DNA of 49,363 nt from a virus (IMGVR_UViG_3300037465_000531); one strand, 5' to 3'; positions 1 through 49,363 are shown, numbered from the stretch's first letter. The notes: generated by a model from the sequence alone, not told the origin. Numbers and translations are program-made.

Positions 1-127
1 TGCAGCCGATCATCCGCAGGCTGCGCGGTCAAGAGGTCGTGCATCCGCCGTACGACCGTCTGGTTCTGGCATCCGTGCCCCTGCTGGAGCAGTCCGGCGT
101 CTTCCCCCGGCCCGCCCTTCCAAGGAT
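1..127. repeat. Terminal direct repeat, left copy (identical to 49237..49363); circular closure or terminal redundancy
   Basis: tgcagccgatcatccgcagg...cccgcccttccaaggat reads identically at both window ends, 127 nt, no mismatch seen. Confidence 0.95.
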
Positions 128-581
128 GCTCTTTCACTTCGTTCGCATACAGTTGATGGACTCAGCCGACTATCGCAGAAAGGTCGGCAGAGAATACCCT
201 CCTTGGATTGTCCGCACCAACCGGATGTATGTGCCCGTATACCATGGCTGCGCTCTGGGCTTGGCGGGCACGGAAAGCCGGACGGGCAAACCGATCCACT
301 CCGCCGAGTCATCGAGCTGGGAAAAGACCCGCGCGTACTTCTACAAGGCCATTCGGGCCCGTGCGGGCGCAGCGACCAAGGAGGCCCGGGAACTGTTTTA
401 TCGGATCAACGACGAAGGCGGGCGCGACGGGCTCATATACGACGACGGCAGCCGACCGCTCATCGTCATCTTGGAGGGCAAGGGATCGAGGGACCCGGAA
501 TACGGGATCGTCGAGGCCCTTTGGAAAACCATCAAGGCCGTGTACCCCAACGTCGCGGCTCTCGCGGAGCTGAGCGTATGA
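1..581 (+). CDS. Family-A tandem paralogue 3, 3' part (gene starts at 49164 and crosses the junction); hypothetical protein
   Basis: ORF 39..581 stays open to the window start and is in frame with ATG 49164 once the 127-nt repeat is collapsed (217 aa). MYVPVY core. C-terminus VEALWKTIKAVYPNVAALAELSV is shared with neighbours. Confidence 0.8.
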   Translation, partial: QPIIRRLRGQEVVHPPYDRLVLASVPLLEQSGVFPRPALPRMLFHFVRIQLMDSADYRRKVGREYPPWIVRTNRMYVPVYHGCALGLAGTESRTGKPIHSAESSSWEKTRAYFYKAIRARAGAATKEARELFYRINDEGGRDGLIYDDGSRPLIVILEGKGSRDPEYGIVEALWKTIKAVYPNVAALAELSV

Positions 582-1177
582 TTCTGACCGGCGGAAAATG
601 GTTCTACAACTCGGATTTCACCGAGTGGCAGCAGGCGCAGGGGCCGGACATCCGCGACAGCCCGTCCGAGCTGGGCAGGATCCTGAGTGTGCTGGCCATG
701 CAGAAGACCGGACCGGCATTGGCGCTGGCGCACTTCATCTACGTCCGGCAGACAACCTACCTGATCATGATGCAGGGTTGGCTGGGAGGGCGCAGGAGCA
801 TCAAGCTGCCGAAGGGCGCGGAAGAATGGACCACCATGTGGGTGCCCGTGTATGGCAAGGCGATAGCAGCGGTTTTCCCCCGGGGATCCATGACCCTTTT
901 TGTTGTCAGACCGCACCCCGAAAAAGACCGCCACCACGGCTACCTGCTGCCGGAGTGCATCCGGCGGGACTGGGATGAAGCCGTCCAGTGCGTGCGGCGC
1001 GGCGTGGAGCGGCTGCACTCCAAAAGCCCGGTGCCGCGCTGGTTCCTAGGGTTCGGCGTGCCTCTCTACGTCAGCGAGAACCGGAGGCCGTCGCCGCGCG
1101 GGGTGCTGTACGACGCAATGCTGACGGCGGTAAGAGACCAGTTTCCTAACGAGGCCTTGTTGGCCGAAATGCTGTAA
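578..1177 (+). CDS. Family-A tandem paralogue 4; hypothetical protein
   Basis: ATGA overlap with upstream stop. MWVPVY core. C-terminus LYDAMLTAVRDQFPNEALLAEML. Confidence 0.8.
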   Translation: MILTGGKWFYNSDFTEWQQAQGPDIRDSPSELGRILSVLAMQKTGPALALAHFIYVRQTTYLIMMQGWLGGRRSIKLPKGAEEWTTMWVPVYGKAIAAVFPRGSMTLFVVRPHPEKDRHHGYLLPECIRRDWDEAVQCVRRGVERLHSKSPVPRWFLGFGVPLYVSENRRPSPRGVLYDAMLTAVRDQFPNEALLAEML

Positions 1178-1190
1178 AGGAGAAGCGCGG

Positions 1191-1370
1191 ATGATCGACC
1201 AGAAAACCGAATACTGGCTCAAGTGCAGCCCGGAGAGGCTGGCATGCGAGATTGAAATGGCCGTCTGGATGACCCAGCCGCTGCCAGAGGTGCTGTCCAC
1301 CCGGGACCGGGAGCGGCTGGAGGCCCGGATTCTGGAGGTCGTGGAGCTGCTCACGGTCCGGGAGGGGTGA
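1191..1370 (+). CDS. Small hypothetical protein (59 aa, below ORF-track cutoff)
   Basis: AAGGAGAAG a few nt upstream of ATG 1191. MIDQKTEYWLKCSPERLACEIEMAVWMTQPLPEVLSTRDRERLEARILEVVELLTVREG. Stop overlaps the next start (GTGATG). Confidence 0.55.
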   Translation: MIDQKTEYWLKCSPERLACEIEMAVWMTQPLPEVLSTRDRERLEARILEVVELLTVREG

Positions 1371-2137
1371 TGGCCAAACCGAAGCTCCTTCTGCTCGATC
1401 CGGCGGAGATCGAGCTGAGCGACAACATCCGGGGGGAGATCAGCGAGGACGACGCCCGGCGCATGGCGCAGGATCTGCTTGAGGCAGGCTGTCAGCTTCA
1501 GCCGGTCGGCGTGCGCCGGGTGCCCGGCGGCGGGTGGCGTCTGGTCTACGGACACCGGCGCGTGGCCGGTTTGCTCTGGCTGCAACGAAACGCTGCTCTG
1601 CCGGAGGACAGCCCGCTGCGGCAGGCATCCGCCATCGAGGTGCCGAGCCGGGAGGAGGAGCTCATCATCCAGATCCGGGAAAACAGCGCCCGGCGCAACC
1701 TGAAGCCGGTCGAGGAGGCCGAGCTTATCCGGGACCTGTTGGCCGACGGTCGCACCGTGGAGCAGGTAGCCCGCATATTTGGCCGCAGTGCAGGGTGGGT
1801 CACCCAGCGCCACACGCTGCTGTCACTGCCGCCCGAGGTCCTACAGGCAGTGGGAAGCCGCATCAGCCCCTACGATGGCTATCATCTGGCCCGGATGAAC
1901 CCCCGCGAGCGGGAGGCAAGGGTCAGGGAGCTGATTGGTGAAAAACCGGATTCGGGCGTCCGTGCTGTGCGTAGGAAACGACCCTCGTCCCGGGACGTCA
2001 GCCGCCTGCTCTCACGGCTGCGGAAGTCATGCCCGGAAGCGGGAGCACTATTAGACAACCTGATATTGTATTTGGAAGGGCAGCGTGATGGCGCGGAGGC
2101 AGAGAGACGGATCAGGGAGGTTCTGCAAAGACAATGA
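1367..2137 (+). CDS. ParB/Srx-like N-terminal domain protein with HTH
   Basis: ELSDNIRGE ... WRLVYGHRRVAGL (ParB-box-like), then TVEQVARIFGRSAGWVTQRH (HTH-like). GTG 1367 or ATG 1370 as start. Confidence 0.7.
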   Translation: MMAKPKLLLLDPAEIELSDNIRGEISEDDARRMAQDLLEAGCQLQPVGVRRVPGGGWRLVYGHRRVAGLLWLQRNAALPEDSPLRQASAIEVPSREEELIIQIRENSARRNLKPVEEAELIRDLLADGRTVEQVARIFGRSAGWVTQRHTLLSLPPEVLQAVGSRISPYDGYHLARMNPREREARVRELIGEKPDSGVRAVRRKRPSSRDVSRLLSRLRKSCPEAGALLDNLILYLEGQRDGAEAERRIREVLQRQ

Positions 2138-4299
2138 AATACGTCACCTATTACGACGGACTGTTCCGATGGCGCGGGCCCTACGACCTGCGTCTGGTTC
2201 CCAAGTACGCCGACTGGTGGTGGAACGTGCCCGCCCGCGAGTGGCAGACCGCCGACCACAAGAAGGCGCTCAAGCTGCAGCAGTACTTCGACGCCGCCGC
2301 CGAGGAGGAGATCCGAAGCTGGGAAGCCCGCCAGCGGCGCGAGCTGGAGGAGAGCCGGTCCGTCAAGGCCGACATCGAGATCCCCTGCCCTCCCGGGCTG
2401 AACTATCTCGATTACCAGAAGGCGGGCGTCGCCTACGCCGTCCGGCGCGACGGGACGCTGATCGCCGATGAGATGGGATTGGGAAAAACCATACAAGCCA
2501 TCGGGCTGATGAACTATCTTGGCGGCGACTGCCGCAACGTGCTCGTCATCTGCCCGGCCACGCTCAAGATCAACTGGCAGCGCGAGCTGGAGAAGTGGCT
2601 GGTTTTCGACCGCAGCATCGGCATCGTCGACGGCAAGACCGGGTGGAGGGACGAGGACATCATCATCGTCAACTACGACCTGCTGGACCGCTTCACCCGG
2701 GAGCTCAGAAGCCGCGTGTGGGACGTGGTGGTGCTCGACGAGGCGCACTACATCAAGAACCCGGAAGCCAAACGCACTGTCGCCGTTACAGGCAAGCGGG
2801 TGTTCGACATGGACCGCCGCCAGTGGGTGGTGCTCCAGCAGCCTGTGCCCGGGAAGAAGCGCCTGCTGCTGACCGGAACTCCTATCTACAACCGCCCGCA
2901 GGATCTCTGGACCATCGTCGACTACTGTTTGTCGGACGTGCCCATCAGCTCTCGGTTCAAGCACTTCCAGAGCAAGGGGACGTTCTGGAAGCGCTACGCC
3001 GGGTATACCCAGACCCGGCACGGGTGGGAGTTCACGGGGCCCATGAATCTGGACGAGCTGCAAGAGCAGATGCGAGTGCATATGATGATCCGCCGACTGA
3101 AATCTCAGGTGCTCACCGAGCTTCCGCCCAAGATCCGGCAGGTTGTCGAGCTGGACGCAAGAGGAGCCTCCTCCGTCATCAAGGCCGAGTACGAGCACGC
3201 CCGGAAGAAGCAGGACGCGCTCATCGCCGCGCAGGCCGAGATGGAGATCGCCAAGGCCACCGGCGACGACGAGGCCTACCGGGCCGCCGTCAAGAAGCTG
3301 CGGCAGGCTCACTCGGTTGCGTTCGAGGAGATGGCCAAGATCCGACACGAGGTCGGGCTGGCCACCGCCAAGGCGGCGCTCGGCTGCCTTGAGGACGCCG
3401 TGGAGAGCTCCGGCAAGCTCGTCATCTTCGCCCACCACCGGGACGTCATCGAGCTGATCGAGAACCACCTGACCGGCAAGGGTTGCAAGGTGGTCAAGGT
3501 CGTGGGCGGCATGAGTTCCTCGGACAAGCAGGCGGCGGTCGACAGCTTCCAGCAAAAGAAGGGCGGAGCGGACGTCTTCATCGGTTCGATCACCGCTGCA
3601 GGCGTCGGCATCACCCTGACCGCTTCGTCGCACGTCGTGTTCGTCGAGCTGGACTGGGTCCCGGCCAACATCGAGCAGGGCGAGGACCGGTGCCACCGCA
3701 TCGGGCAGGAGCAGCCGGTGCTCGTCCAGCACCTCGTGCTGGAGGGCTCGCTCACCGCACGCATCGCCCAGACCATCGTTGAGAAGCAGGAGACCAACCG
3801 CAAGGCGCTCGACAACAAGGGCGCTGGCACCGAGGAGAAGCCGGAGTTCCTCAACGAGCCTATCGTCCCCGCTGCGGTTGACAAGACCGAATCCGCGCCG
3901 TCCGCCGCGTCCACCGTGCTCACGCCGCGCCAGAGGCTGCAGCAGGAGGGCGAGTCGATGACCGATGAGCAGCGCCGTCTGACCCGCAGCGTCATCCGGT
4001 TCATCGCCGGTCTCTGTGACCGCGCCCGGAATCTGGACGACGTCGGCTTCAACAAGCTGGACTCGGCCATCGGACACCGTCTGGCACAGACCCCGGACGA
4101 GCTCTGGACGCCCGGCATGCACGCGCTGGCCAAGGTTGTCTGCCGCAAGTACCGGCGGCAGATCGTCGAGGGTCTCGGATCGGCCGTCTACGAGGGGTTG
4201 TACGGACCCGGGTCCGCCACACCGTCCGAAAGGCGGAAACGGAATCCCGAGCTGGCGGAGGACGAGCTGGACAGCAAAGTCATGTCAAGGGGAATGTAG
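2134..4299 (+). CDS. SNF2-family (SF2) helicase/ATPase
   Basis: ADEMGLGKTIQAI (motif I), VVLDEAHYIKN (II), LLLTGTPIYNRPQDLW (III), SITAAGVGITLTASSHVVFVELDWVPANIEQGEDRCHRIGQ (V-VI). ATGA overlap with the ParB-like gene. Confidence 0.9.
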   Translation: MKYVTYYDGLFRWRGPYDLRLVPKYADWWWNVPAREWQTADHKKALKLQQYFDAAAEEEIRSWEARQRRELEESRSVKADIEIPCPPGLNYLDYQKAGVAYAVRRDGTLIADEMGLGKTIQAIGLMNYLGGDCRNVLVICPATLKINWQRELEKWLVFDRSIGIVDGKTGWRDEDIIIVNYDLLDRFTRELRSRVWDVVVLDEAHYIKNPEAKRTVAVTGKRVFDMDRRQWVVLQQPVPGKKRLLLTGTPIYNRPQDLWTIVDYCLSDVPISSRFKHFQSKGTFWKRYAGYTQTRHGWEFTGPMNLDELQEQMRVHMMIRRLKSQVLTELPPKIRQVVELDARGASSVIKAEYEHARKKQDALIAAQAEMEIAKATGDDEAYRAAVKKLRQAHSVAFEEMAKIRHEVGLATAKAALGCLEDAVESSGKLVIFAHHRDVIELIENHLTGKGCKVVKVVGGMSSSDKQAAVDSFQQKKGGADVFIGSITAAGVGITLTASSHVVFVELDWVPANIEQGEDRCHRIGQEQPVLVQHLVLEGSLTARIAQTIVEKQETNRKALDNKGAGTEEKPEFLNEPIVPAAVDKTESAPSAASTVLTPRQRLQQEGESMTDEQRRLTRSVIRFIAGLCDRARNLDDVGFNKLDSAIGHRLAQTPDELWTPGMHALAKVVCRKYRRQIVEGLGSAVYEGLYGPGSATPSERRKRNPELAEDELDSKVMSRGM

Positions 4300-41524: not shown

Positions 41525-41885
41525 CGTGACGGTTGCCGGGCGTCTGCGAGGCGGGGCAGACGTCCGGCTCCTCGTCGAGCAGGCGCAGGATGGCGGACCA
41601 GATATGATAGCTGCGGAGGACGCGATGGAGCACGCCGCCGTGGGCCCAGAGTTCGCGGTGCCGGGACCGGTCGAACTTGGGGCTGGACTCGATGATGGAA
41701 ACCGCAGACCGGGCCGCGCTCTCGGCTGCGCGGAACAGGCTGAGGAGCCCGGGCTCCAGAGTGCGGAGGGCCTTGTAGTTGTCCTGCTGCGCCAACCGGC
41801 ATTCCGGGCAGCGTCCGCCTTCGCCGGACCGCAGCCGCTGGTAGGTGGAGCCGCAGTAGGGGCAGGCGACAACCGCACGGGTCAC
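41355..41885 (-). CDS. Zinc-ribbon protein (start uncertain, GTG 41885 proposed)
   Basis: CPYCGSTYQRLRSGEGGRCPECR. Third-position GC is high from ~41880 down to ~41510. The upstream part of the listed ORF lies in an AT-rich promoter region. Confidence 0.5.
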   Translation of the reverse strand: MTRAVVACPYCGSTYQRLRSGEGGRCPECRLAQQDNYKALRTLEPGLLSLFRAAESAARSAVSIIESSPKFDRSRHRELWAHGGVLHRVLRSYHIWSAILRLLDEEPDVCPASQTPGNRHAIPLPPGAWLEVRLGVRQPLSGAQTPASPAGSPHAAGPDAPADDDGPQAPSDSTTP

Positions 41886-41995
41886 AGCACCATTGTACCA
41901 GACAGTGTAAATGTGTACACTGCCGGAGCCGGTAGTTCTAGCGTTCTGTAACCACAATAGTCTGGAAGTTGTTGAAAACAAAAGGAACAAAAGTA

Positions 41996-42024
41996 TTGAC
42001 TCATTAAATGGAAACGGGTAATGT
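41996..42024 (+). promoter_or_regulatory. Sigma70-like promoter TTGACT-N17-TAATGT, predicts a leaderless or near-leaderless mRNA for gene 42031
   Basis: TTGACT 41996-42001, 17-nt spacer, TAATGT 42019-42024, ATG at 42031. No SD in agaagc. Confidence 0.55.
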
Positions 42025-42030
42025 AGAAGC

Positions 42031-43122
42031 ATGGAGACGAAAAGCTTTCTGATCAGCAAGGCCCTAGCGACCAACGTACCCGCTCTCCTGTGGGGCGAGC
42101 CGGGCGTTGGAAAAACAGCCCGACTCGCGGCGTTTGCCCGTGAGACGGGCTTTGCCTTTTTCCCAGTAGTGCTTTCGCACTACGACCCCGTGGAGTTCCA
42201 CGGGGTCCTCACTGTTGACCCCGCGACACGGCGGGTCCACCGCGCCCTGCCCGACTGGGCGGGGCCGGAGGTGTTCGACCCTGAGGTCGACAGCATCATC
42301 TTCCTCGACGAGCTGTCGACCTCGACCCCGGCTCAGCAGGCCGCTGCCCTTAAGCTTTTGTCCGAGCGCGAGCTCGGCGGGAGGAAGCTCTCCTCTCGCT
42401 GCCGCATCATCGCGGCAGCCAATCCCCCGGAGTGCGCTGCCGGGGGGCAGGATCTGGTCGCTCCCACCGCCAACCGCTTTGCCCATATCCGCGTGGGGGC
42501 GGATGCGGCGGACTTCGCCGCGCACTTCCCGAGCATGTGGGCCGATTGCGGCTCCGGGCTCGCCCAATTGCCGGAGCCCTCTGAGGAGGAGAGGATCAGG
42601 GCCCGCGCCCTGATCGCCGCGTTCCTGCAGCGGCGGCCCAACCTGCTGCATGCGATGCCGCAGGATCCCCTGCAGCAGGGGGGCCCGTGGCCCTCCCCCC
42701 GGAGCTGGGAGCTCTGCTCCCGGCTGATGGCCGGGGAAACCGACTCCGAGCGGATCCTCGCCGCGGCCGCCGCCACAGTCAGCGAGGCGGCGGCGGTCGA
42801 GCTCGCCGCCTTCCTCCGGGATGCCAATATCCCGGATCCGGAGTCGGTCCTCGCCGATCCGGAGTCCGCGCCCATCCCCGGGCGCGGGGACATTCTCTAC
42901 GCCGCCATCAGCGGCGCGGCGGCGGCGGCAGTCGCCCGCCCGTCCCGTGAGCGCGTCCGGGCAGCGTGGGTCTACCTCCGTCGTGTCGCGGAGGCGGGCC
43001 ACGCCGATGTCTGCGGGCCCGTTATCCGCCCGCTCGTGCAGGGCGGAGGCCAGCACTTCTCGCCGGTCAGCGAGCCGTCCCTGCTCGCGCCGTTTCGCCG
43101 CGTCCTCGACGCGGCCAAGTAG
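42031..43122 (+). CDS. MoxR-like (AAA_5-type) AAA+ ATPase
   Basis: LLWGEPGVGKTARL (Walker A), SIIFLDELSTS (Walker B), CRIIAAANPPE (sensor 1). Confidence 0.85.
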   Translation: METKSFLISKALATNVPALLWGEPGVGKTARLAAFARETGFAFFPVVLSHYDPVEFHGVLTVDPATRRVHRALPDWAGPEVFDPEVDSIIFLDELSTSTPAQQAAALKLLSERELGGRKLSSRCRIIAAANPPECAAGGQDLVAPTANRFAHIRVGADAADFAAHFPSMWADCGSGLAQLPEPSEEERIRARALIAAFLQRRPNLLHAMPQDPLQQGGPWPSPRSWELCSRLMAGETDSERILAAAAATVSEAAAVELAAFLRDANIPDPESVLADPESAPIPGRGDILYAAISGAAAAAVARPSRERVRAAWVYLRRVAEAGHADVCGPVIRPLVQGGGQHFSPVSEPSLLAPFRRVLDAAK

Positions 43123-43131
43123 TAGTAGTAG
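43120..43131 (+). repeat. Four consecutive in-frame TAG stop codons
   Basis: aag tag tag tag tag agg read directly at the end of gene 42031. Confidence 0.95.
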
Positions 43132-43307
43132 AGGTGGTTGCATCCGGCAGTATACTGATTTTGGAGGTCTACCGCCAGCGCTACAACGACCACTGGCTCG
43201 TGGAGAGTCTCAGGTTTCAATCCCCGCGGCAGGCCCGTCAAAGGCTGCTTGCCCTCGAGGCTGCTGCACGATGATAATCGAAAAAAACTGTCCAAAGGAG
43301 GTTATCC

Positions 43308-43559
43308 ATGTTTATCTTTAGTGTGAGATTGTATCGGGGTGGGAGAGAACTGGGCCAAATTTGGTCTCAGCCCGTCCCAAGCGAGGTAGCCCATGCTTTG
43401 GAGCAACTGGTCGACATCCTCGGTGACGTGTACGAAATCGAGGCAGAACCTAAAGTGAAACATGTGTCTAGCACGCAGATTCACGATGGCACTTCATGGC
43501 CGTCCTTTGAAGATCATGGAGTGGTGTGGAGTTATAGCGCAGAATTCGAACAAGAATAA
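43308..43559 (+). CDS. Hypothetical protein in a visibly lower-GC patch
   Basis: CAAAGGAGG upstream of the ATG. Confidence 0.65.
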   Translation: MFIFSVRLYRGGRELGQIWSQPVPSEVAHALEQLVDILGDVYEIEAEPKVKHVSSTQIHDGTSWPSFEDHGVVWSYSAEFEQE

Positions 43560-43589
43560 AATGCCAATGTGCATTGAGGATGTAAAGAT

Positions 43590-43874
43590 ATGAGATACAT
43601 TCCCAGAAAACCCAGCCCAACGTTTGAAGTAATCCAGAAACTGCTGCAGAGGCTTGGTTCTATACCAGCCGCGCTGGTGCCGGTGGGGATGGCCCGCGCC
43701 CGGGCCGCCGGTTCGCCTGTCATAGAGGTTATTCCCGGCACCATCTCCGACTACGGGCGTCAGATACTGTTTGAGCTCGGCTCGTTCGCCCGGCGGTTCT
43801 CTTTGCCGTCCAGCATCTCCATCGGGGATCTGGAGCGGGAGGTGGGCAGACGGCTGCCGGGACTTGTTGGCTGA
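43590..43874 (+). CDS. Hypothetical protein
   Basis: ORF track. Confidence 0.6.
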   Translation: MRYIPRKPSPTFEVIQKLLQRLGSIPAALVPVGMARARAAGSPVIEVIPGTISDYGRQILFELGSFARRFSLPSSISIGDLEREVGRRLPGLVG

Positions 43875-43907
43875 GGTGCGGAACATCGAAACCCTGAGGT
43901 CGCTGTC

Positions 43908-44363
43908 ATGACCCGCACCATCGTGTTTGACCAAGGCGCGCTGGACAGAGACCCGCTTCTCGCAGCGCTGGCCGCAGTCCTGAAGCGGATGGCCGCGCTG
44001 CAATACGACAACCGGCTGATGATGCCATACACTCTGGTCGTGCGTCATGGCAGCCGGGAGTATGCGGCTTTGTACGAGTCCCGGATGTATAGCCTGTGGG
44101 TCCACTACGGCTGGTTGTATGCAGACGACCGCAAACTGGGCCACGGCTCGACTGCGGACCGTGCGTGGCAGCCGCTGGAAGCCCGGAAATACCACCGGGA
44201 CGGACTGCCGGAGCGAAGGCAGCGCATCTCCGAGCTAGGCTACCGTGGGATGCTGTCAGAGGCGCTGCGCTATGCACTGCGATACATAGACTGGATCTGG
44301 CTCGGCAGGCCGGAGCTGCGGGCCGAGGCCGAGTCGGCGCTCGTGCTGGGGGACTTGACATGA
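43908..44363 (+). CDS. Hypothetical protein
   Basis: ORF track; first gene of an ATGA-coupled chain. Confidence 0.65.
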   Translation: MTRTIVFDQGALDRDPLLAALAAVLKRMAALQYDNRLMMPYTLVVRHGSREYAALYESRMYSLWVHYGWLYADDRKLGHGSTADRAWQPLEARKYHRDGLPERRQRISELGYRGMLSEALRYALRYIDWIWLGRPELRAEAESALVLGDLT

Positions 44364-44770
44364 TCGTTCGATACCACGACGCTCTCCAACCGGTGGAAGA
44401 GGACATCCTCAGGCGCATGTCCCGGGCCTTTGGAGGTGTGCTTCAGGTGCCTATCATCAGCCGGATGACGCTGCAGAACAAGAGTGTGCTGCACTTCGGA
44501 GACCAAGTCGTCTTCGCTCTGGAAGGTTCGGCGCTGAAGATGTTCTCCATCCCTACGTTCCCGTGCAAGGACAGGCGCAAGCTTGCCGATCAGATGTCGG
44601 ACGCAGCCATCCCTGCCGGGTTGCGGCCCTACGCCCGCCGCGAGCGTGAGACGCAGATTGCCGTGGCCGACCTGCTGCGCCATCTGTCCCGCATCCAGCC
44701 GGTGGTCGAGGCGTGCCCGTGGCTGCCGGAGCAGTTGTCGGTTCTGCAGACTCTGGAGGAGATTTCATGA
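44360..44770 (+). CDS. Family-B paralogue 1
   Basis: ATGA overlap. C-terminus VVEACPWLPEQLSVLQTLEEIS. Confidence 0.7.
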   Translation: MIVRYHDALQPVEEDILRRMSRAFGGVLQVPIISRMTLQNKSVLHFGDQVVFALEGSALKMFSIPTFPCKDRRKLADQMSDAAIPAGLRPYARRERETQIAVADLLRHLSRIQPVVEACPWLPEQLSVLQTLEEIS

Positions 44771-45183
44771 CTCCTGCCAAGGCGCTGATGATGGACACCC
44801 TGTGGGAGATGTGCTCCGTCGCTGATTGCGTCTCCCCAAAGCCGTTCTTCGCTGCCATGATCCTGCGGTCCAGCAGCCCGGCATGGGGCATCTGGTATCG
44901 CGTCTGCGCGGTGCAATGGGTGTACCGGAGGCCGGAATCCTACGAGAGGCTCGTGCTCGAAACCGGATTCTGGCCGTCCAGCATGTCAGAGGCGCACGAG
45001 TGGGCGGCGAAGAACGTCGCGCCTCCGCCGTTCTTCGCCCCCTGCACAGACCCGGATTTCTACTCGCAGCAGACGATGCTGCATGATCTGAGATACTTCG
45101 CTTCCGTCCCACGAGTGCTGGACCGGTGCCCGTGGCTGCCGGAGCGGCTGTCTGCAGTCGAGTTGCTGGAGGAGATCTCATGA
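44767..45183 (+). CDS. Family-B paralogue 2
   Basis: ATGA overlap. C-terminus VLDRCPWLPERLSAVELLEEIS. Confidence 0.7.
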   Translation: MTPAKALMMDTLWEMCSVADCVSPKPFFAAMILRSSSPAWGIWYRVCAVQWVYRRPESYERLVLETGFWPSSMSEAHEWAAKNVAPPPFFAPCTDPDFYSQQTMLHDLRYFASVPRVLDRCPWLPERLSAVELLEEIS

Positions 45184-45953
45184 TCCCGATCACCGAGGAC
45201 GTCGTCAAGAGTCTGGTCAGCATAGGACAGCAGTCCGTAGCCGCCTACGTCAAAGCCTGCGCGGCCACGGGTCATTTCCCGTTCAGCGTCATCAGCATCC
45301 CGGATGTGGACGCAGGCATCGACATACCGGCTCTGTACTACATGCCCCGCCGGTGCTGGAACGAGTACGAAACCTGCTACCGGGTCCTGCCGCTGGTTCC
45401 GGGCGCGTGGAAGCTGCGCCGCAAGCGGGTCATCCGTCTCTCAGACAGCATCCAGCTTTCGTCCTCCAGCGAAGCTAAAACGTCCCTGTTCCGTCTGCTG
45501 TCGTTTGTTGCCTTCAGCGAGGTCAGCACCCGCCATCCGGGGAGCGGCATTGTCCGAACGACATTTCCCGCCCTGCTGGTGTGGAGGGAAAGCGTGAGCG
45601 GGGACGGCAGGTGCGTCTACCGGTATGCAATGGCTGGATACCCAGCCGTGTTTTCGGACTCAGAACAAACCATTCGGTGGAACAGCTATAATCAGGGCCC
45701 CGTATCCCGGGACCGGTTGCCCGGTCTTTTGGACGTGCCGCGCGGAGTCGTCAGCCGTACAGAGGACGCGGCGATCCGGTACGCCGAGTCCCTGCTGGCC
45801 GGATACGATCCCCGTTCGTTCGTCACCGCCTGCCGCAGGGCTTCTCCTGTGGAGTACTCCGGCTCGTCGTCCATCGTCATCGAATGGGCGGACGCGCTGG
45901 AAGCAGCAACCCGCAAGTGGCCGGGGTACGCCACTCTGGCCGAGATGATGTGA
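45180..45953 (+). CDS. Hypothetical protein; C-terminus resembles family A
   Basis: ATGA overlap. Ends ...ALEAATRKWPGYATLAEMM (compare ...FPNEALLAEML). Confidence 0.65.
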   Translation: MIPITEDVVKSLVSIGQQSVAAYVKACAATGHFPFSVISIPDVDAGIDIPALYYMPRRCWNEYETCYRVLPLVPGAWKLRRKRVIRLSDSIQLSSSSEAKTSLFRLLSFVAFSEVSTRHPGSGIVRTTFPALLVWRESVSGDGRCVYRYAMAGYPAVFSDSEQTIRWNSYNQGPVSRDRLPGLLDVPRGVVSRTEDAAIRYAESLLAGYDPRSFVTACRRASPVEYSGSSSIVIEWADALEAATRKWPGYATLAEMM

Positions 45954-45971
45954 GCCTATTGGAGGATTGCC

Positions 45972-46076
45972 ATGACCTGTACATACTGTGAGCATGGGGA
46001 CCACGAGTTCCCCGCGCCGGATTGCGAATGTGATTGCCCGTGCCATGGGGGTTGCCATGCGGAAGCCGAATCCTGA
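45972..46076 (+). CDS. Cys/His-rich micro-protein (34 aa) candidate
   Basis: GGAGGATTGCC-ATG. MTCTYCEHGDHEFPAPDCECDCPCHGGCHAEAES (7 Cys, 5 His). Overlaps the proposed start of the next gene by 20 nt. Confidence 0.4.
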   Translation: MTCTYCEHGDHEFPAPDCECDCPCHGGCHAEAES

Positions 46077-47442
46077 ATTGCCGGAGATCCTGCAGTACGC
46101 CCGTCTGAAGCTGCTGAAGGAGCGCCCGTATCTGGCGCACATCGTGTTCCGCATGGTGCCGGTGCCGACGCCGGGGCTCGGCACCCTTGCCGTGGACCGC
46201 TGGTGGAGGTTCTACTACGACCCGCAGATCCACGAGAAGATGACGGCGAAGGAAGCCGTGGCAGCGATCTACCACGAGGTCCACCACATTCTCCGGCAGC
46301 ACGCGACGCGCCACGCGTGGATGAGTGAGCAGAACCCGCAATTGGCAAACATCTGCACGGACCTGTCGATCAACAGCGATATCCGCGAGGAGCGGTGGGA
46401 GACCGAGGGGGTTAGGCTGCCGGACTGGGTGCTGCAACCGGAGCAGTTCAAACTGCCGCCGAAGCAGACGCCGGAAGAATACTGGGACGCACTCCAGCAG
46501 CAGCAGCAGCAAGGGCAAGGGCAAGGGCAAGGGCAAGGGCAGCAGGCACCCGGTCAGCAGTCCTCGGGCGGGGGCAAAGGGAAGGGGAAAGGGGCTGGCA
46601 AGGGCGCAGGCAAGGGATCCGGCGGCCAGAGCGGCTCCCAGAGCCCGGGGGCAGGGGGCAGGGCGCAGGGGCCCGGCTCCGGTTCGTCTGAGGGCCACGC
46701 AGCGCCCGGGGCGGGTGGCTGCGGATCCTGCGCCGGTGGACCCCGCCGGGAGTGGGAGCTGCCCAGCCCCGGCGAATCCGGCGTCGATGGCGTCGGCCAG
46801 ATCGAGGGGGAGGTCATCCTCGGGGATGTCGCCCGGGAGATCGCCGAGCACGCCCGAGGCCGGGGCAACGTCCCCGGCAGCCTCAAGCGGTGGGCCGAGC
46901 AGTTCGTCCAACCGGCCAAGGTCGACTGGCGCAAGCTTCTGGCCAGCTACATCCGCCGCGCGGCGGCCACCCGTTACGGCAGCATGGACTATTCGTTCCG
47001 CCGAACCAGCCACCGCGCCGCCGCTCGCGGCATCATCCAGCCCGGGCTCGTAACCCCGGATCCGACAGTCGCCGTCGTGCTCGACACCAGCGGCTCCATG
47101 GGCCAGAAGGAATTGCAGGCGGCCCTCAGCGAGGTGCAGGGCATCCTGCGCTCGCTCGGTCTGCGCGAGCTCACGCTGCTCGACGTCGACGCCAAGGCGC
47201 ACCGCGCCCGCAAGGTGAGCACCCTTCGCCGTATCGAGGCACTCGGCGGCGGAGGCACGGACATGCGCGTCGGCATCGACGCCGCGCTCAAACTCAAACC
47301 ACGACCGGAAATCATCATCGTGCTGACCGACGGCTACACCCCGTGGCCGGACGCCGCACCCTCGGTGCCGGTCGTCGTAGGCCTCGTCGCCGGGGACATG
47401 GAGGTCCCGAAATGGGCGAAGAAAGTGGTCGTCGAGCAGTGA
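46057..47442 (+). CDS. HExxH metallopeptidase-like N-domain + low-complexity linker + von Willebrand A domain protein
   Basis: AAIYHEVHHILRQH. VAVVLDTSGSMG (MIDAS DxSxS), GGGTDM, IIIVLTDGYTPWP. The start could also be GTG 45988 or ATG 46045. Confidence 0.85.
   Translation: MRKPNPELPEILQYARLKLLKERPYLAHIVFRMVPVPTPGLGTLAVDRWWRFYYDPQIHEKMTAKEAVAAIYHEVHHILRQHATRHAWMSEQNPQLANICTDLSINSDIREERWETEGVRLPDWVLQPEQFKLPPKQTPEEYWDALQQQQQQGQGQGQGQGQQAPGQQSSGGGKGKGKGAGKGAGKGSGGQSGSQSPGAGGRAQGPGSGSSEGHAAPGAGGCGSCAGGPRREWELPSPGESGVDGVGQIEGEVILGDVAREIAEHARGRGNVPGSLKRWAEQFVQPAKVDWRKLLASYIRRAAATRYGSMDYSFRRTSHRAAARGIIQPGLVTPDPTVAVVLDTSGSMGQKELQAALSEVQGILRSLGLRELTLLDVDAKAHRARKVSTLRRIEALGGGGTDMRVGIDAALKLKPRPEIIIVLTDGYTPWPDAAPSVPVVVGLVAGDMEVPKWAKKVVVEQ
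46495..46539 (+). repeat. In-frame microsatellites (CAG)5 then (CAAGGG)5
   Basis: Read directly; encodes QQQQQ(QG)5 at the start of a Gly/Lys/Ser/Gln low-complexity linker. Confidence 0.9.
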
Positions 47443-47867
47443 GAGTCTTTCAGGCTGCCGGAATCCGTGGCACGTCCCAGCACGCGCGGGTGGTCATGAA
47501 CTACATCCGACAGCGTGGCGAGGCAATGGGACAACTGCCGAGGCTCCGTGTCGGACTGCTCTTCTGGGGCGAAAACAGGACCCTCATCCACGGCGAGGTT
47601 TTCATCCTCGATCCGCAAGGGTATCAGTACGACGGCATCGTCAGCTCGCTTGTGAACTCGCCGGAGGAAGGCGAGCAGGCGATGCAGTCCGAGATCCGCG
47701 CCATGATCGACGAGCACGCTCCCGAATACATCATTTTCAGCCGGGGCCGGATGTCCGTGCAGGACGCCTGCGCCGAGCTCATCAGCTATTGGTCGCAATG
47801 GCCGGAGATGCTGCCCGGCTTCGACGGGCGGGCTGCGTTGACTTTGGCAGAATTGGAGGTTGCCTGA
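47439..47867 (+). CDS. Hypothetical protein, possible distant family-A member (ATG 47496 alternative)
   Basis: GTGA overlap with the upstream stop. Ends ...RAALTLAELEVA. Confidence 0.6.
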   Translation: MRVFQAAGIRGTSQHARVVMNYIRQRGEAMGQLPRLRVGLLFWGENRTLIHGEVFILDPQGYQYDGIVSSLVNSPEEGEQAMQSEIRAMIDEHAPEYIIFSRGRMSVQDACAELISYWSQWPEMLPGFDGRAALTLAELEVA

Positions 47868-48535
47868 TGGGATTCTGGTCTTTCACCAGCCAGCACTTCA
47901 TGGAACGCGGAGACCTCCCGTTCCTTTTCGATGACATGCACAAGCTCAGAGCGATGGTGTCTTACTCGTCGGTGAGGGCCCTGTCGCCGGACGTCGACCG
48001 CCTGCCCGCCGTGCTGGACGTCATCATGCAGACGTCCGGTATAAGAACCGTGCTGGCTCACGCGGTCCGGATCCCCAAGATGTCTCTGCAGACTCTGGCC
48101 AGAACCGCCTACCCGGCCTATCTGGAGTTCCGGGACGCGATGCGGCGCGTGTCGCCGTCGTTTTCCGACACCGGCACGCAGACGGTCTGGGTTCCGATGT
48201 ACTGCGCCTACCAAGCGGAGTTCTTCGGCAACGGGCCGATACGGTGGAGCTTGTCAAGGCGGAAGGGCGGTCCGTTCATGATCGGCAATGCCGCCCGCCC
48301 CAAGGTGAAGGACGCGGTTGCGGAGGCGGCCCGCTACATCGAACAATACCGGAGCAACGTGGGAAGCACCGGGCGGAAAGGCATGTTGCTGCTGGATCCG
48401 AAAGCGCCCGAACTGCACTGGTTCCACCGCCCGCCGCTGGCGTCGGATCCGGCAGCCGTGGCCGTCGAGTCGATTTGGCGGACCGTCAAACAGCAATACC
48501 CGAACGAGGTCACGCTTGCGGAGCTTGCCATATGA
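47867..48535 (+). CDS. Family-A tandem paralogue 1
   Basis: TGATG junction. LSPDVDRLPAVLDVI, VWVPMY, C-terminus VESIWRTVKQQYPNEVTLAELAI. Confidence 0.8.
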   Translation: MGFWSFTSQHFMERGDLPFLFDDMHKLRAMVSYSSVRALSPDVDRLPAVLDVIMQTSGIRTVLAHAVRIPKMSLQTLARTAYPAYLEFRDAMRRVSPSFSDTGTQTVWVPMYCAYQAEFFGNGPIRWSLSRRKGGPFMIGNAARPKVKDAVAEAARYIEQYRSNVGSTGRKGMLLLDPKAPELHWFHRPPLASDPAAVAVESIWRTVKQQYPNEVTLAELAI

Positions 48536-49167
48536 GCGTGCATACACTGTTCGACCACGTCAACACACTGTATTTGCAAATGGGAAGTCCGCCTTCCAGA
48601 CACGCGTCCATCGCCGCGCAACCGGCTCTTTCGCCGGACATCGACCGCATGGGGGCTGTCTTGGAGATCGTGCGAGACGCTCATAAAATCGACAGGCTGT
48701 TCGCTCACAGCATCCGGCTGGAGCAGATGACCTTTTCCTCGCTCGGCAGGCGCGACTACACCCTGTACCTGCAGGTTTTTGAAATCATCCGGCGGGAGAC
48801 GCCGCTACGGCTGATCAGACAGACCGACCGCGTCTATGTGCCGATTTACCGGGTCTACCTCGCTGACTACGGAGACAACAGCGGCTGGACCGTGAGCGCC
48901 GTGACATCGCAGGGGGAAGTCATCCCGGAGTCTGTGCACTCGCGCAGGTCATCCGCAGTGGACAAGGCACTCTTCCGGCTGCGCGGCTTGGTGGAGCACA
49001 AAGTGAGCCTGCGCCGATCCCACGAGTCGCTGCTGCAGACCCCGGTGTCCGTGTTCGACAAGCCGCCGATCTCCAAGGACGCCGACGCCACGATGGTGGA
49101 GGCGCTCTGGCGGACGCTGAAGCGCCGGTTTACAAACGAAGTTCTTTTGTCGGAGCTGAGCGCATGA
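48532..49167 (+). CDS. Family-A tandem paralogue 2
   Basis: ATGA overlap. LSPDIDRMGAVLEIV, VYVPIY, C-terminus VEALWRTLKRRFTNEVLLSELSA. Confidence 0.8.
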   Translation: MSVHTLFDHVNTLYLQMGSPPSRHASIAAQPALSPDIDRMGAVLEIVRDAHKIDRLFAHSIRLEQMTFSSLGRRDYTLYLQVFEIIRRETPLRLIRQTDRVYVPIYRVYLADYGDNSGWTVSAVTSQGEVIPESVHSRRSSAVDKALFRLRGLVEHKVSLRRSHESLLQTPVSVFDKPPISKDADATMVEALWRTLKRRFTNEVLLSELSA

Positions 49168-49363
49168 CAGATATCGTTTCCTCTCCCTATTGGCTGAAGA
49201 TGGACGAGCCGTCAGTCAGGATCCGTCCGTTCGACATGCAGCCGATCATCCGCAGGCTGCGCGGTCAAGAGGTCGTGCATCCGCCGTACGACCGTCTGGT
49301 TCTGGCATCCGTGCCCCTGCTGGAGCAGTCCGGCGTCTTCCCCCGGCCCGCCCTTCCAAGGAT
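49164..49363 (+). CDS. Family-A tandem paralogue 3, 5' part (continues at window base 128 once the repeat is collapsed)
   Basis: ATGA overlap. MTDIVSSPYWLKMDEPSVRIRPFDMQPIIRRLRGQEVVHPPYDRL... runs without a stop into the terminal repeat. Confidence 0.8.
   Translation, partial: MTDIVSSPYWLKMDEPSVRIRPFDMQPIIRRLRGQEVVHPPYDRLVLASVPLLEQSGVFPRPALPR
49237..49363. repeat. Terminal direct repeat, right copy (identical to 1..127)
   Basis: Same 127-nt string as the window start. Confidence 0.95.

Follow-up and report, generated by a model that had tools for sequence, protein, structure and literature searches.

The 49,363-nucleotide stretch of viral DNA catalogued as IMGVR_UViG_3300037465_000531, referred to here as the window, carries a tandem array of four genes, A1 to A4, whose products form a protein family designated family A. 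The array genes and their putative Shine-Dalgarno sites all lie on the plus strand. A1 (47867..48535) encodes an a-type paralogue of 222 aa with orthologues in every related contig covering this position, and A2 (48532..49167), whose ATGA start overlaps the A1 stop, a b-type paralogue of 211 aa. A3 starts at 49164, runs off the window end at 49363 and continues at window position 128, the 3' part being located at 1..581, of which 1-127 is an assembly duplicate of 49237-49363. A4 (578..1177), which closes the array and has diverged furthest of the paralogues, encodes 199 aa and is followed by a 13-nt spacer.

The two ends of the window consist of an exact 127-bp direct repeat (1-127 = 49237-49363). 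Since the first 127 bases repeat the last 127, the window is a circularly permuted phage genome of about 49.2 kb with a unit of approximately 49,236 bp. Once this redundancy is removed A3 is 217 aa in frame and identical to an uninterrupted gene in an independent assembly (L001); the whole array is uninterrupted in independent assemblies of the same element (49,254 and 49,263 bp) which are cut elsewhere. The "genome junction" which the original prediction placed inside the array is an assembler cut with a 127-bp overlap and has no biological meaning. A 98,579-bp contig in the protein collection carries the same proteins; at about twice the unit length it may be a doubled assembly. A blastn search with positions 44000-49363 gave no match among 50,697 GenBank phage records, and the phage is very distant from any GenBank phage.

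Pairwise blastp, with the database size set to 1e7, gave E values of 1e-24 (A1-A2), 5e-4 (A2-A3), 4e-3 (A1-A3) and 0.07 (A1-A4). A hidden Markov model (HMM) constructed from A1 to A4 recovered exactly those four among all six-frame open reading frames (ORFs) of the window at E ≤1e-64, with no further match at E up to 1. Both results bear out the prediction that A1 to A4 are true tandem paralogues. The boxes SPD(V/I)DR, AH..R and (V/M)(W/Y)VP.Y, which had been ascribed to all four, are present but clean in A1 and A2 only, those of A3 and A4 being degenerate. Similarly, the shared tail W(R/K)T.K..(Y/F)(P/T)N....L(A/S)EL fits A1 to A3 while A4 reads MLTAVRDQFPNEALLAEML, and the claim that each member ends in this way was slightly overstated. 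With just 20-27% identity to all the remaining family members, A3 and A4 are old or imported copies and not fresh duplicates. The G+C content at third codon positions of the array genes (0.77-0.83) matches the rest of the genome, and the ratio of nonsynonymous to synonymous substitution rates (dN/dS) between orthologues is 0.27-0.49 overall (0.29 for A1 against its counterpart in the related contig L010, 0.27-0.35 for A2); the array genes look expressed and are under purifying selection. Family A members are basic, with isoelectric points of 8.6-9.7 (9.7 for A1).

No match to family A was found in Pfam, PHROGs, NCBIfam or PADLOC, where the best hits were at chance level (E of at least 0.01) and far below the cut-offs, and a profile search of PDB sequences returned chance matches alone (E of at least 0.13). 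Together with the Foldseek search described below, this bears out the first observation that the family could not be placed among known ones. A word-indexed search of 5.8 billion clusters revealed 8 family A proteins, and an exhaustive HMMER scan of 1.84 billion representative proteins 7 true relatives and two further long repetitive proteins which look like chance matches. All true relatives are located in syntenic contigs of one small phage clade, and scans of viral, genome and metagenome collections led to the same clade only. On the basis of these searches family A is new and, as far as is known, confined to one small phage clade. One of the source samples of the relatives, IMG 3300032356, is described as a hot-spring mat metagenome (bioRxiv 10.1101/2022.09.30.510284).

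Copy number and distribution, which had been proposed as a check, were examined in the related contigs. Relatives long enough to judge carry exactly two copies, one a-type and one b-type, against four in this phage, and complete b-type orthologues lie downstream of the a-type gene in sufficiently long related contigs. The a-type orthologues are 48-69% identical to A1 and the b-type orthologues about 50% identical to A2. Orthologues of A3 (whose sole representative is P0006) and of A4 (P0002) were not found outside this phage among the 1.84 billion representatives. The closest relative of A2 is encoded on a 746-bp contig (L013) and ends in a further ATGA overlap with GGAG. At 713-746 of that contig a new ORF (MSHYLIPKPYI...) opens from a TTATGA overlap behind GCG GAG, the contig ending after 11 codons; the array of that phage probably includes this ORF as a third member. 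An a+b pair is also present on L015 (DAOTZV010000057.1, 2,608 bp), a short contig binned into an Anaerolineae metagenome-assembled genome, which may be a weak hint of the host (Chloroflexota) or a binning artefact and is too short to prove a host. Public annotation calls the b-type gene as 172 aa in two contigs, L007 (10783) and L008 (6111), but the frame is open to the ATG of the ATGA overlap, giving about 210 aa.

The rate of evolution was estimated by comparison with L010. The neighbouring MoxR, VWA, ParB, SNF2 and 59-aa genes are 78-81% identical to their counterparts, whereas the figures are 69% for A1, 50% for A2, 33% for a 257-aa gene starting at 45180 and 30% for the Family-B gene. The corresponding dN/dS values are 0.29-0.35 for A1/A2 and 0.14-0.23 for MoxR, VWA, ParB, SNF2 and the 59-aa gene. 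By both measures the array is evolving faster than the flanking enzymes, which fits an accessory or host-interaction role without proving one.

The genes of the array and its flank are joined by stop/start overlaps: GTGA at 47439, TGATG at 47867, and ATGA at 48532, 49164 and 578. The overlap claimed for every junction can therefore be read directly from the sequence, and the same junction types are present in the relatives. Each overlapping ATG start is preceded by a putative Shine-Dalgarno site embedded in the upstream gene. For A1 this is GGAGG at 47855..47859, 7 nt before the ATG, in Leu-Glu-Val codons of a 142-aa gene starting at 47439. The sites of the next three genes are GGAG, in each case 8 nt before the ATG: at 48520..48523 for A2, formed by GCG GAG (Ala-Glu) of the A1 tail LAELAI; at 49152..49155 for A3, formed by TCG GAG (Ser-Glu) of the A2 tail LSELSA; and at 566..569 for A4, formed by GCG GAG of the A3 tail LAELSV. 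In contrast, the 59-aa gene which follows the array has a free-standing GGAG (1179..1182) 8 nt ahead of it, within the spacer that separates it from A4. The spacers after the b-type gene in the relatives are homologous to this post-A4 spacer (AAGGAGAAGC). Since GGAG is found 7-8 nt upstream of each overlapping downstream start, translational coupling of the array genes is well supported as a prediction. The coupling part of the proposed termination-reinitiation is consistent with the overlaps and GGAG sites, while reinitiation and fresh initiation cannot be separated by sequence. RNA structure masking the starts at the junctions gave no signal (z between -0.44 and +0.96).

The codons which carry these sites are also those of the tail ...WRT.K..YPNE..LAEL. 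Across the clade, 11 of 13 gene ends overlapped by a downstream gene use GCG/TCG-GAG, thus making GGAG, whereas all eight ends that close an array have GCC GAA, without GGAG, and yet encode LAE(L/M). These last ends are followed by a spacer of 13-15 nt carrying its own AAGGAG. A4 follows the rule, its tail LLAEML being encoded with GCC GAA and hence lacking GGAG. By comparison, the Ala-Glu dicodons of the whole genome are GCC GAG in 56%, GCG GAG in 19% and GCC GAA in 5% of cases. Among b-type ends, the two coupled ones (A2 and that on L013) have xCG GAG and the seven that are last in the array have GCC GAA; b-type orthologues, as far as these ends indicate, switch codons depending on the presence of a following gene. 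Conservation of the tail reaches about 20 codons upstream of the gene end, and over the last 60 nt of A1 to A3 codon positions 1 and 2 are generally more alike (0.60-0.70) than position 3 (0.40-0.60), which argues for conservation as a peptide. The tail is, on this evidence, maintained at the protein level, the Shine-Dalgarno site being superimposed through synonymous codon choice.

The locus is probably, if by no means certainly, an array of chained, co-produced, fast-evolving and basic accessory paralogues with the Shine-Dalgarno sites of the downstream genes lying over a conserved tail. Several points weigh against this interpretation. Two coupled ends lack a perfect GGAG (the a-type genes of L008, GCG GAA, and L020, GCA GAG), the codon-switch contrasts amount to only about 2-3 independent events once shared ancestry is counted, and the 3' end of A4 with its spacer may be of common descent with the 3' end of the b-type gene. 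An AlphaFold2 (AF2) model of A1, based on a 9-sequence alignment, was weak overall (mean pLDDT, the predicted local distance difference test, of 62; predicted template modelling score of 0.60), with a poorly defined N-terminus and a pLDDT below 50 in the tail, although an alpha/beta core reached 70-88 over residues ~60-120 and 140-160. Foldseek comparison of this model gave nothing at E ≤0.001, the best values being 0.2 (PDB) and 0.08 (BFVD). Finally, any function ascribed to family A is conjecture.

The array is housed in one long co-directional replication-type operon. At the head of the co-directional block are genes for a UDG-domain protein with a weak DNA-polymerase match and a PolA-type polymerase. 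Further downstream are a MoxR-like AAA+ gene (42031-43122), identified by profile match (AAA_5, bpMoxR-like), a variable run of small genes, a 257-aa gene (45180), and a gene (46057..47442, plus strand) for a DUF2201_N metallopeptidase-like plus DUF2201/VWA protein (Pfam E 5e-40 and 3e-20). The translated VWA part contains DTSGS, a DxSxS motif of the metal-ion-dependent adhesion site (MIDAS) type. A low-complexity insert (QQQQQGQGQGQGQGQQAPGQQSSGGGKGKGKGAGKGAGKGSGG...) lies inside the DUF2201_N metallopeptidase-like domain, at about 46500-46750, and the PHROGs label of this family, "HNH endonuclease", conflicts with the Pfam domains. The gene is directly upstream of, and coupled to, the 142-aa gene. 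On the other side of the array a 59-aa gene (1191..1370, plus strand), found directly after the array in all relatives (58-59 aa), is followed by a ParB-like gene (1370-2137) and a SNF2 helicase gene (2134-4299). The N-termini of A3 (MTDIVSSPYWLK, 49164-49210) and of the 59-aa protein (MIDQKTEYWLK, 1191-1235) share M.D....YWLK; this likeness of PYWLK to EYWLK was considered as a signal and set aside, as the match is too short, the relatives read EYKLK and chance is the probable cause.

The numbers of promoter- and terminator-like sites were close to those in shuffled sequence (the same for terminators, 4 versus 1.0 for promoter-like sites), and none lay between array genes. Two gene-free gaps interrupt the otherwise tightly packed operon, at 41525-42030 (506 nt) and 43123-43307 (185 nt), the latter containing a sigma-70-like match at 43249-43278; both may be regulatory regions. 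A second tandem paralogue pair is encoded at 44360-44770 and 44767-45183 (136 and 138 aa; blastp 1e-4), with ends reading ...CPWLPE.LS....LEEIS, ATGA overlaps and CTG GAG GAG as the Shine-Dalgarno site; the relatives have one copy of this family. The small-gene run from MoxR to VWA was compared between the window (43308-45953), L005 (2688-6726), L007 (4370-8044) and L010 (2678-5606). It comprises 5 to 8 genes of at least 7 families unrelated by blastp, and their number and content differ among the relatives. The products of nearly all genes of the run close with (aromatic/Arg/His)-Pro-(Gly/Glu/Asp/Asn) and, after it, an amphipathic helix, and two of the families were joined by hhalign (probability 56%, E 1e-4). 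The families of the run may constitute one very diverged superfamily. Compared with the genes at the corresponding positions of L010, those at 45180-45953 and 44767-45183 show only 33% and 30% identity (dN/dS 0.67 and 0.99, respectively); the enzymes flanking them are ~79% identical, a strong local contrast in rate.

Among alternative readings, the array could be five or six genes long, with the genes at 47439 and/or 45180 as highly diverged family A paralogues; this is possible but doubtful. The 142-aa gene (F142; 47439..47867, plus strand) has a GTG start overlapping the DUF2201/VWA stop and a stop overlapping the A1 start, and its product ends in ...ALTLAELEVA. It occurs in this phage clade only; L005, L007 and L010 have, at the same position, 142-aa orthologues with an MRIF start. 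The Joint Genome Institute call for this gene is 123 aa from an ATG at 47496; the 142-aa orthologues back the overlapping GTG at 47439. A comparison of the 142-aa protein with family A by hhalign gave 35 ungapped columns over E.R..(I/M)....P.(Y/F) and the VP..CA core (E 0.018, z = 4.0), a score reached by 0 of 30 column shuffles, and the TLAEL tail points in the same direction. However, the hhalign probability is 2.6%, a single E of 0.018 is not compelling among the 21 family pairs compared, and neither blastp nor the family HMM, even at E 10 with filters off, finds this protein or that of 45180. The 142-aa protein may be a remote, shortened family A relative.

The 257-aa gene (F257; 45180..45953, plus strand), which ends in LAEMM, shares with family A the C-terminal peptide only. 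Its tail RKWPGYATLAEMM is in register with the stop codon when compared to the family A tail DQFPNEALLAEML, the last ~15-17 residues being alike. PDVD at residues 41-44, as in A1, and a V(Y/W)R(Y/M) box could be taken as additional traces of common descent. The best hhalign alignment covered just the last 15 columns (E 0.3, probability 0.2%), with a local score of 14.7 against a shuffled null of 14.5 +/- 2.2 (z = 0.1). With a profile score equal to the column-shuffled null and no family HMM match, the suggestion that 45180 is a remote member was not upheld beyond the likeness of the tail.

This likeness could instead mean that several small proteins of the operon share L(A/S)E(L/M) at the C-terminus as a docking peptide or degron for one common partner, which is judged unlikely. 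Candidate partners would be the neighbouring MoxR-like AAA+/VWA (MIDAS) pair or a host protease reading non-polar C-termini. L(A/S)E(L/M) ends three of the six gene families of the sub-operon (43908 to 1177) and none of ~55 other gene tails; by our own arithmetic such clustering has a chance of C(6,3)/C(61,3) ~6e-4, for a motif defined post hoc. The 45180 product matches A4 over 17 residues in stop-codon register with no homology detected elsewhere, and the tail-bearing genes flank the gene for the VWA protein with its DxSxS motif. MIDAS sites bind acidic ligand residues. Against this, the proposed interaction is derived from motif and neighbourhood, helices encoded by GC-rich genomes commonly contain L, A and E, and the choice of motif was made with the data already in view. 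Remote common ancestry of the three families, of which the weak hhalign signal of 47439 could be a sign, would explain the observations equally well. It is quite improbable that L(A/S)E(L/M), with an aromatic-Pro-(Gly/Asn) turn before it, serves as a portable tag for docking or degradation in at least three small-protein families around the MoxR/MIDAS-VWA pair that are unrelated in other respects or at most remotely related. If this were true, the phage would encode fast-evolving clients or adaptors of one remodelling machine or host protease reading an acidic C-terminal peptide, and the tag itself would contain the Shine-Dalgarno site of each following gene.

Also quite improbable is that the tails are alike only because the overlap and the embedded Shine-Dalgarno site constrain the nucleotides, with no function of the peptide. 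Such an effect does operate in the operon. In unrelated small-gene families the amino acids of the last five codons are variable (LEE, LGR, LGG, LAR, LEG, LEA) while a GGAG/GGGAGG-like core is kept at a fixed distance from the next ATG, and their L-(E/G/A)-(E/R/G)-L-x ends are, on codon grounds, a Shine-Dalgarno by-product. Coupled genes outside the array likewise have a near-terminal Glu (WEELRKLK, IREVLQRQ, VREG), and the likeness of the very last residues between different families is accounted for in this way. Nevertheless, family A retains LAE(L/M) where no gene overlaps and GCC GAA forms no Shine-Dalgarno site, its conservation extends far outside the range of such a site, and third codon positions are not above first and second ones in conservation. 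Moreover, the LAE(L/M) codons of 47439 (GCA GAA) and 45180 (GCC GAG) are not a Shine-Dalgarno site.

Conservation at the DNA level could also arise if the 3' ends were recombination boundaries for the gain and loss of cassettes, two copies versus four, an explanation considered very unlikely. Close relatives do differ in copy number, the ends of A2 and A3 share CGGAGCTGAGCG(C/T)ATGA, and the post-A4 spacer is homologous to that after the b-type gene in relatives. On the other hand, third-position identity is not raised in the last 60 nt, being 0.40-0.60 against 0.60-0.70 for positions 1 and 2, and hence nothing points to recent gene conversion or exchange; in addition, the identity of A3 and A4 to all other members is only 20-27%.

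The weakest alternative, that the tail represents the first helices of a (winged) helix-turn-helix (HTH) and the N-terminus of the next gene its recognition helix, either through fusion or as a relic of the phase of duplication, is extremely improbable, as every last-in-array gene has the tail although, beyond its stop and a spacer, only an unrelated 58-59-aa gene follows, and the N-termini show no conservation among the a-type genes, the b-type genes, A3 and A4, with pLDDT mostly below 50 at residues 8-38. To the eye, many HTH domains begin much like (Y/F)PNE..LAEL, and in the AF2 model the C-terminus forms, with low confidence, a helix followed by a PNE turn and a short helix; because the A1 model is weak and pLDDT in the tail below 50, the HTH shape of the tail is not established. 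No X_XXY_YYZ slippery heptamer was found at the array junctions, in agreement with the first reading, the sole one being internal to A4. The checks suggested for the split unit spoke against it: the five concatenated junction peptides had no Pfam match at E up to 10, the single proteins matched no Pfam HTH, and AF2 of the A1 C-terminus joined to the A2 N-terminus produced one long helix across the junction with no helix-turn-helix, at an unreliable pLDDT of 45. Gene boundaries cutting through an HTH-like unit were therefore discarded. The similarity to HTH and winged-helix domains consists of the hydrophobic-Pro-Asn-Glu..LAEL tail, which is superficial, and the basic character of the proteins; a family A protein stops where the recognition helix would begin, with no match in Pfam or Foldseek.

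If the array is indeed a set of chained and co-produced accessory paralogues, the chain of overlaps would result in coupled and roughly equimolar synthesis of its proteins. The invariable a/b pairing suggests that paralogues work together, and the a/b pair would then act jointly, for example as a hetero-oligomer; A3 and A4 would form a second such pair. The basic charge, the ParB/SNF2 neighbourhood and the fast evolution suggest binding of a nucleic acid or host factor, and the pair is postulated to be a fast-evolving accessory factor which could bind nucleic acid or a partner from host or phage during early infection or replication. Its interaction element would be the conserved C-terminal helix-Pro-Asn-helix. 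As to the host-takeover or anti-defence signature which had been proposed, the fast evolution fits an accessory role, but there is no match in PADLOC or PHROGs to go with it.

In pairs of the E. coli trp operon and in many phage operons, genes are chained by ATGA-type overlaps, the upstream coding sequence housing the Shine-Dalgarno site of the downstream gene. The array likewise has 1- or 4-nt overlaps and GGAG 7-8 nt before the ATG inside the upstream gene, with no intergenic promoter or terminator signal above chance. It differs in that the Shine-Dalgarno site overlies the tail, which is the best-conserved peptide of its paralogue family, that this tail is written with GCG GAG or GCC GAA by position, and that the starts are not masked by RNA structure (z -0.4 to +1.0); coupling here is a prediction from sequence. 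Tandem diverging accessory genes in phage early regions are known from the SPO1 host-takeover module and from clustered anti-defence loci. Family A resembles them in its small size, restriction to one phage group, lack of known domains, variable copy number and fast evolution. Unlike them, it lies between a VWA gene and ParB/SNF2 in a replication-type operon instead of a separate early region, it has no PADLOC or PHROGs match, and any takeover or anti-defence activity is putative. Chaperone pairs of a MoxR AAA+ and a VWA (MIDAS) protein include RavA-ViaA, CbbQ-CbbO and NorQ-NorD. This operon also has a MoxR-like AAA+ and a DxSxS VWA gene, bracketing small genes with acidic C-terminal tails, but its VWA protein is of the DUF2201 metallopeptidase-VWA type, and the likeness is one of context and not of membership.

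The array and its coupling follow familiar phage principles, while family A itself is new. The absence of outside relatives, the fast evolution and the variable copy number make it a candidate for host interaction in phages related to one from a hot-spring mat. For annotation, the results advise caution, since alike C-termini in chained genes should not be taken as homology or as split domains. The same peptide, written with a Shine-Dalgarno site if a gene follows and without one if none does, constitutes a small natural experiment and offers a clean view of how codons are shared between a translational signal and a protein sequence. Both the new family and this natural experiment fit well-known principles and leave current understanding unchanged.

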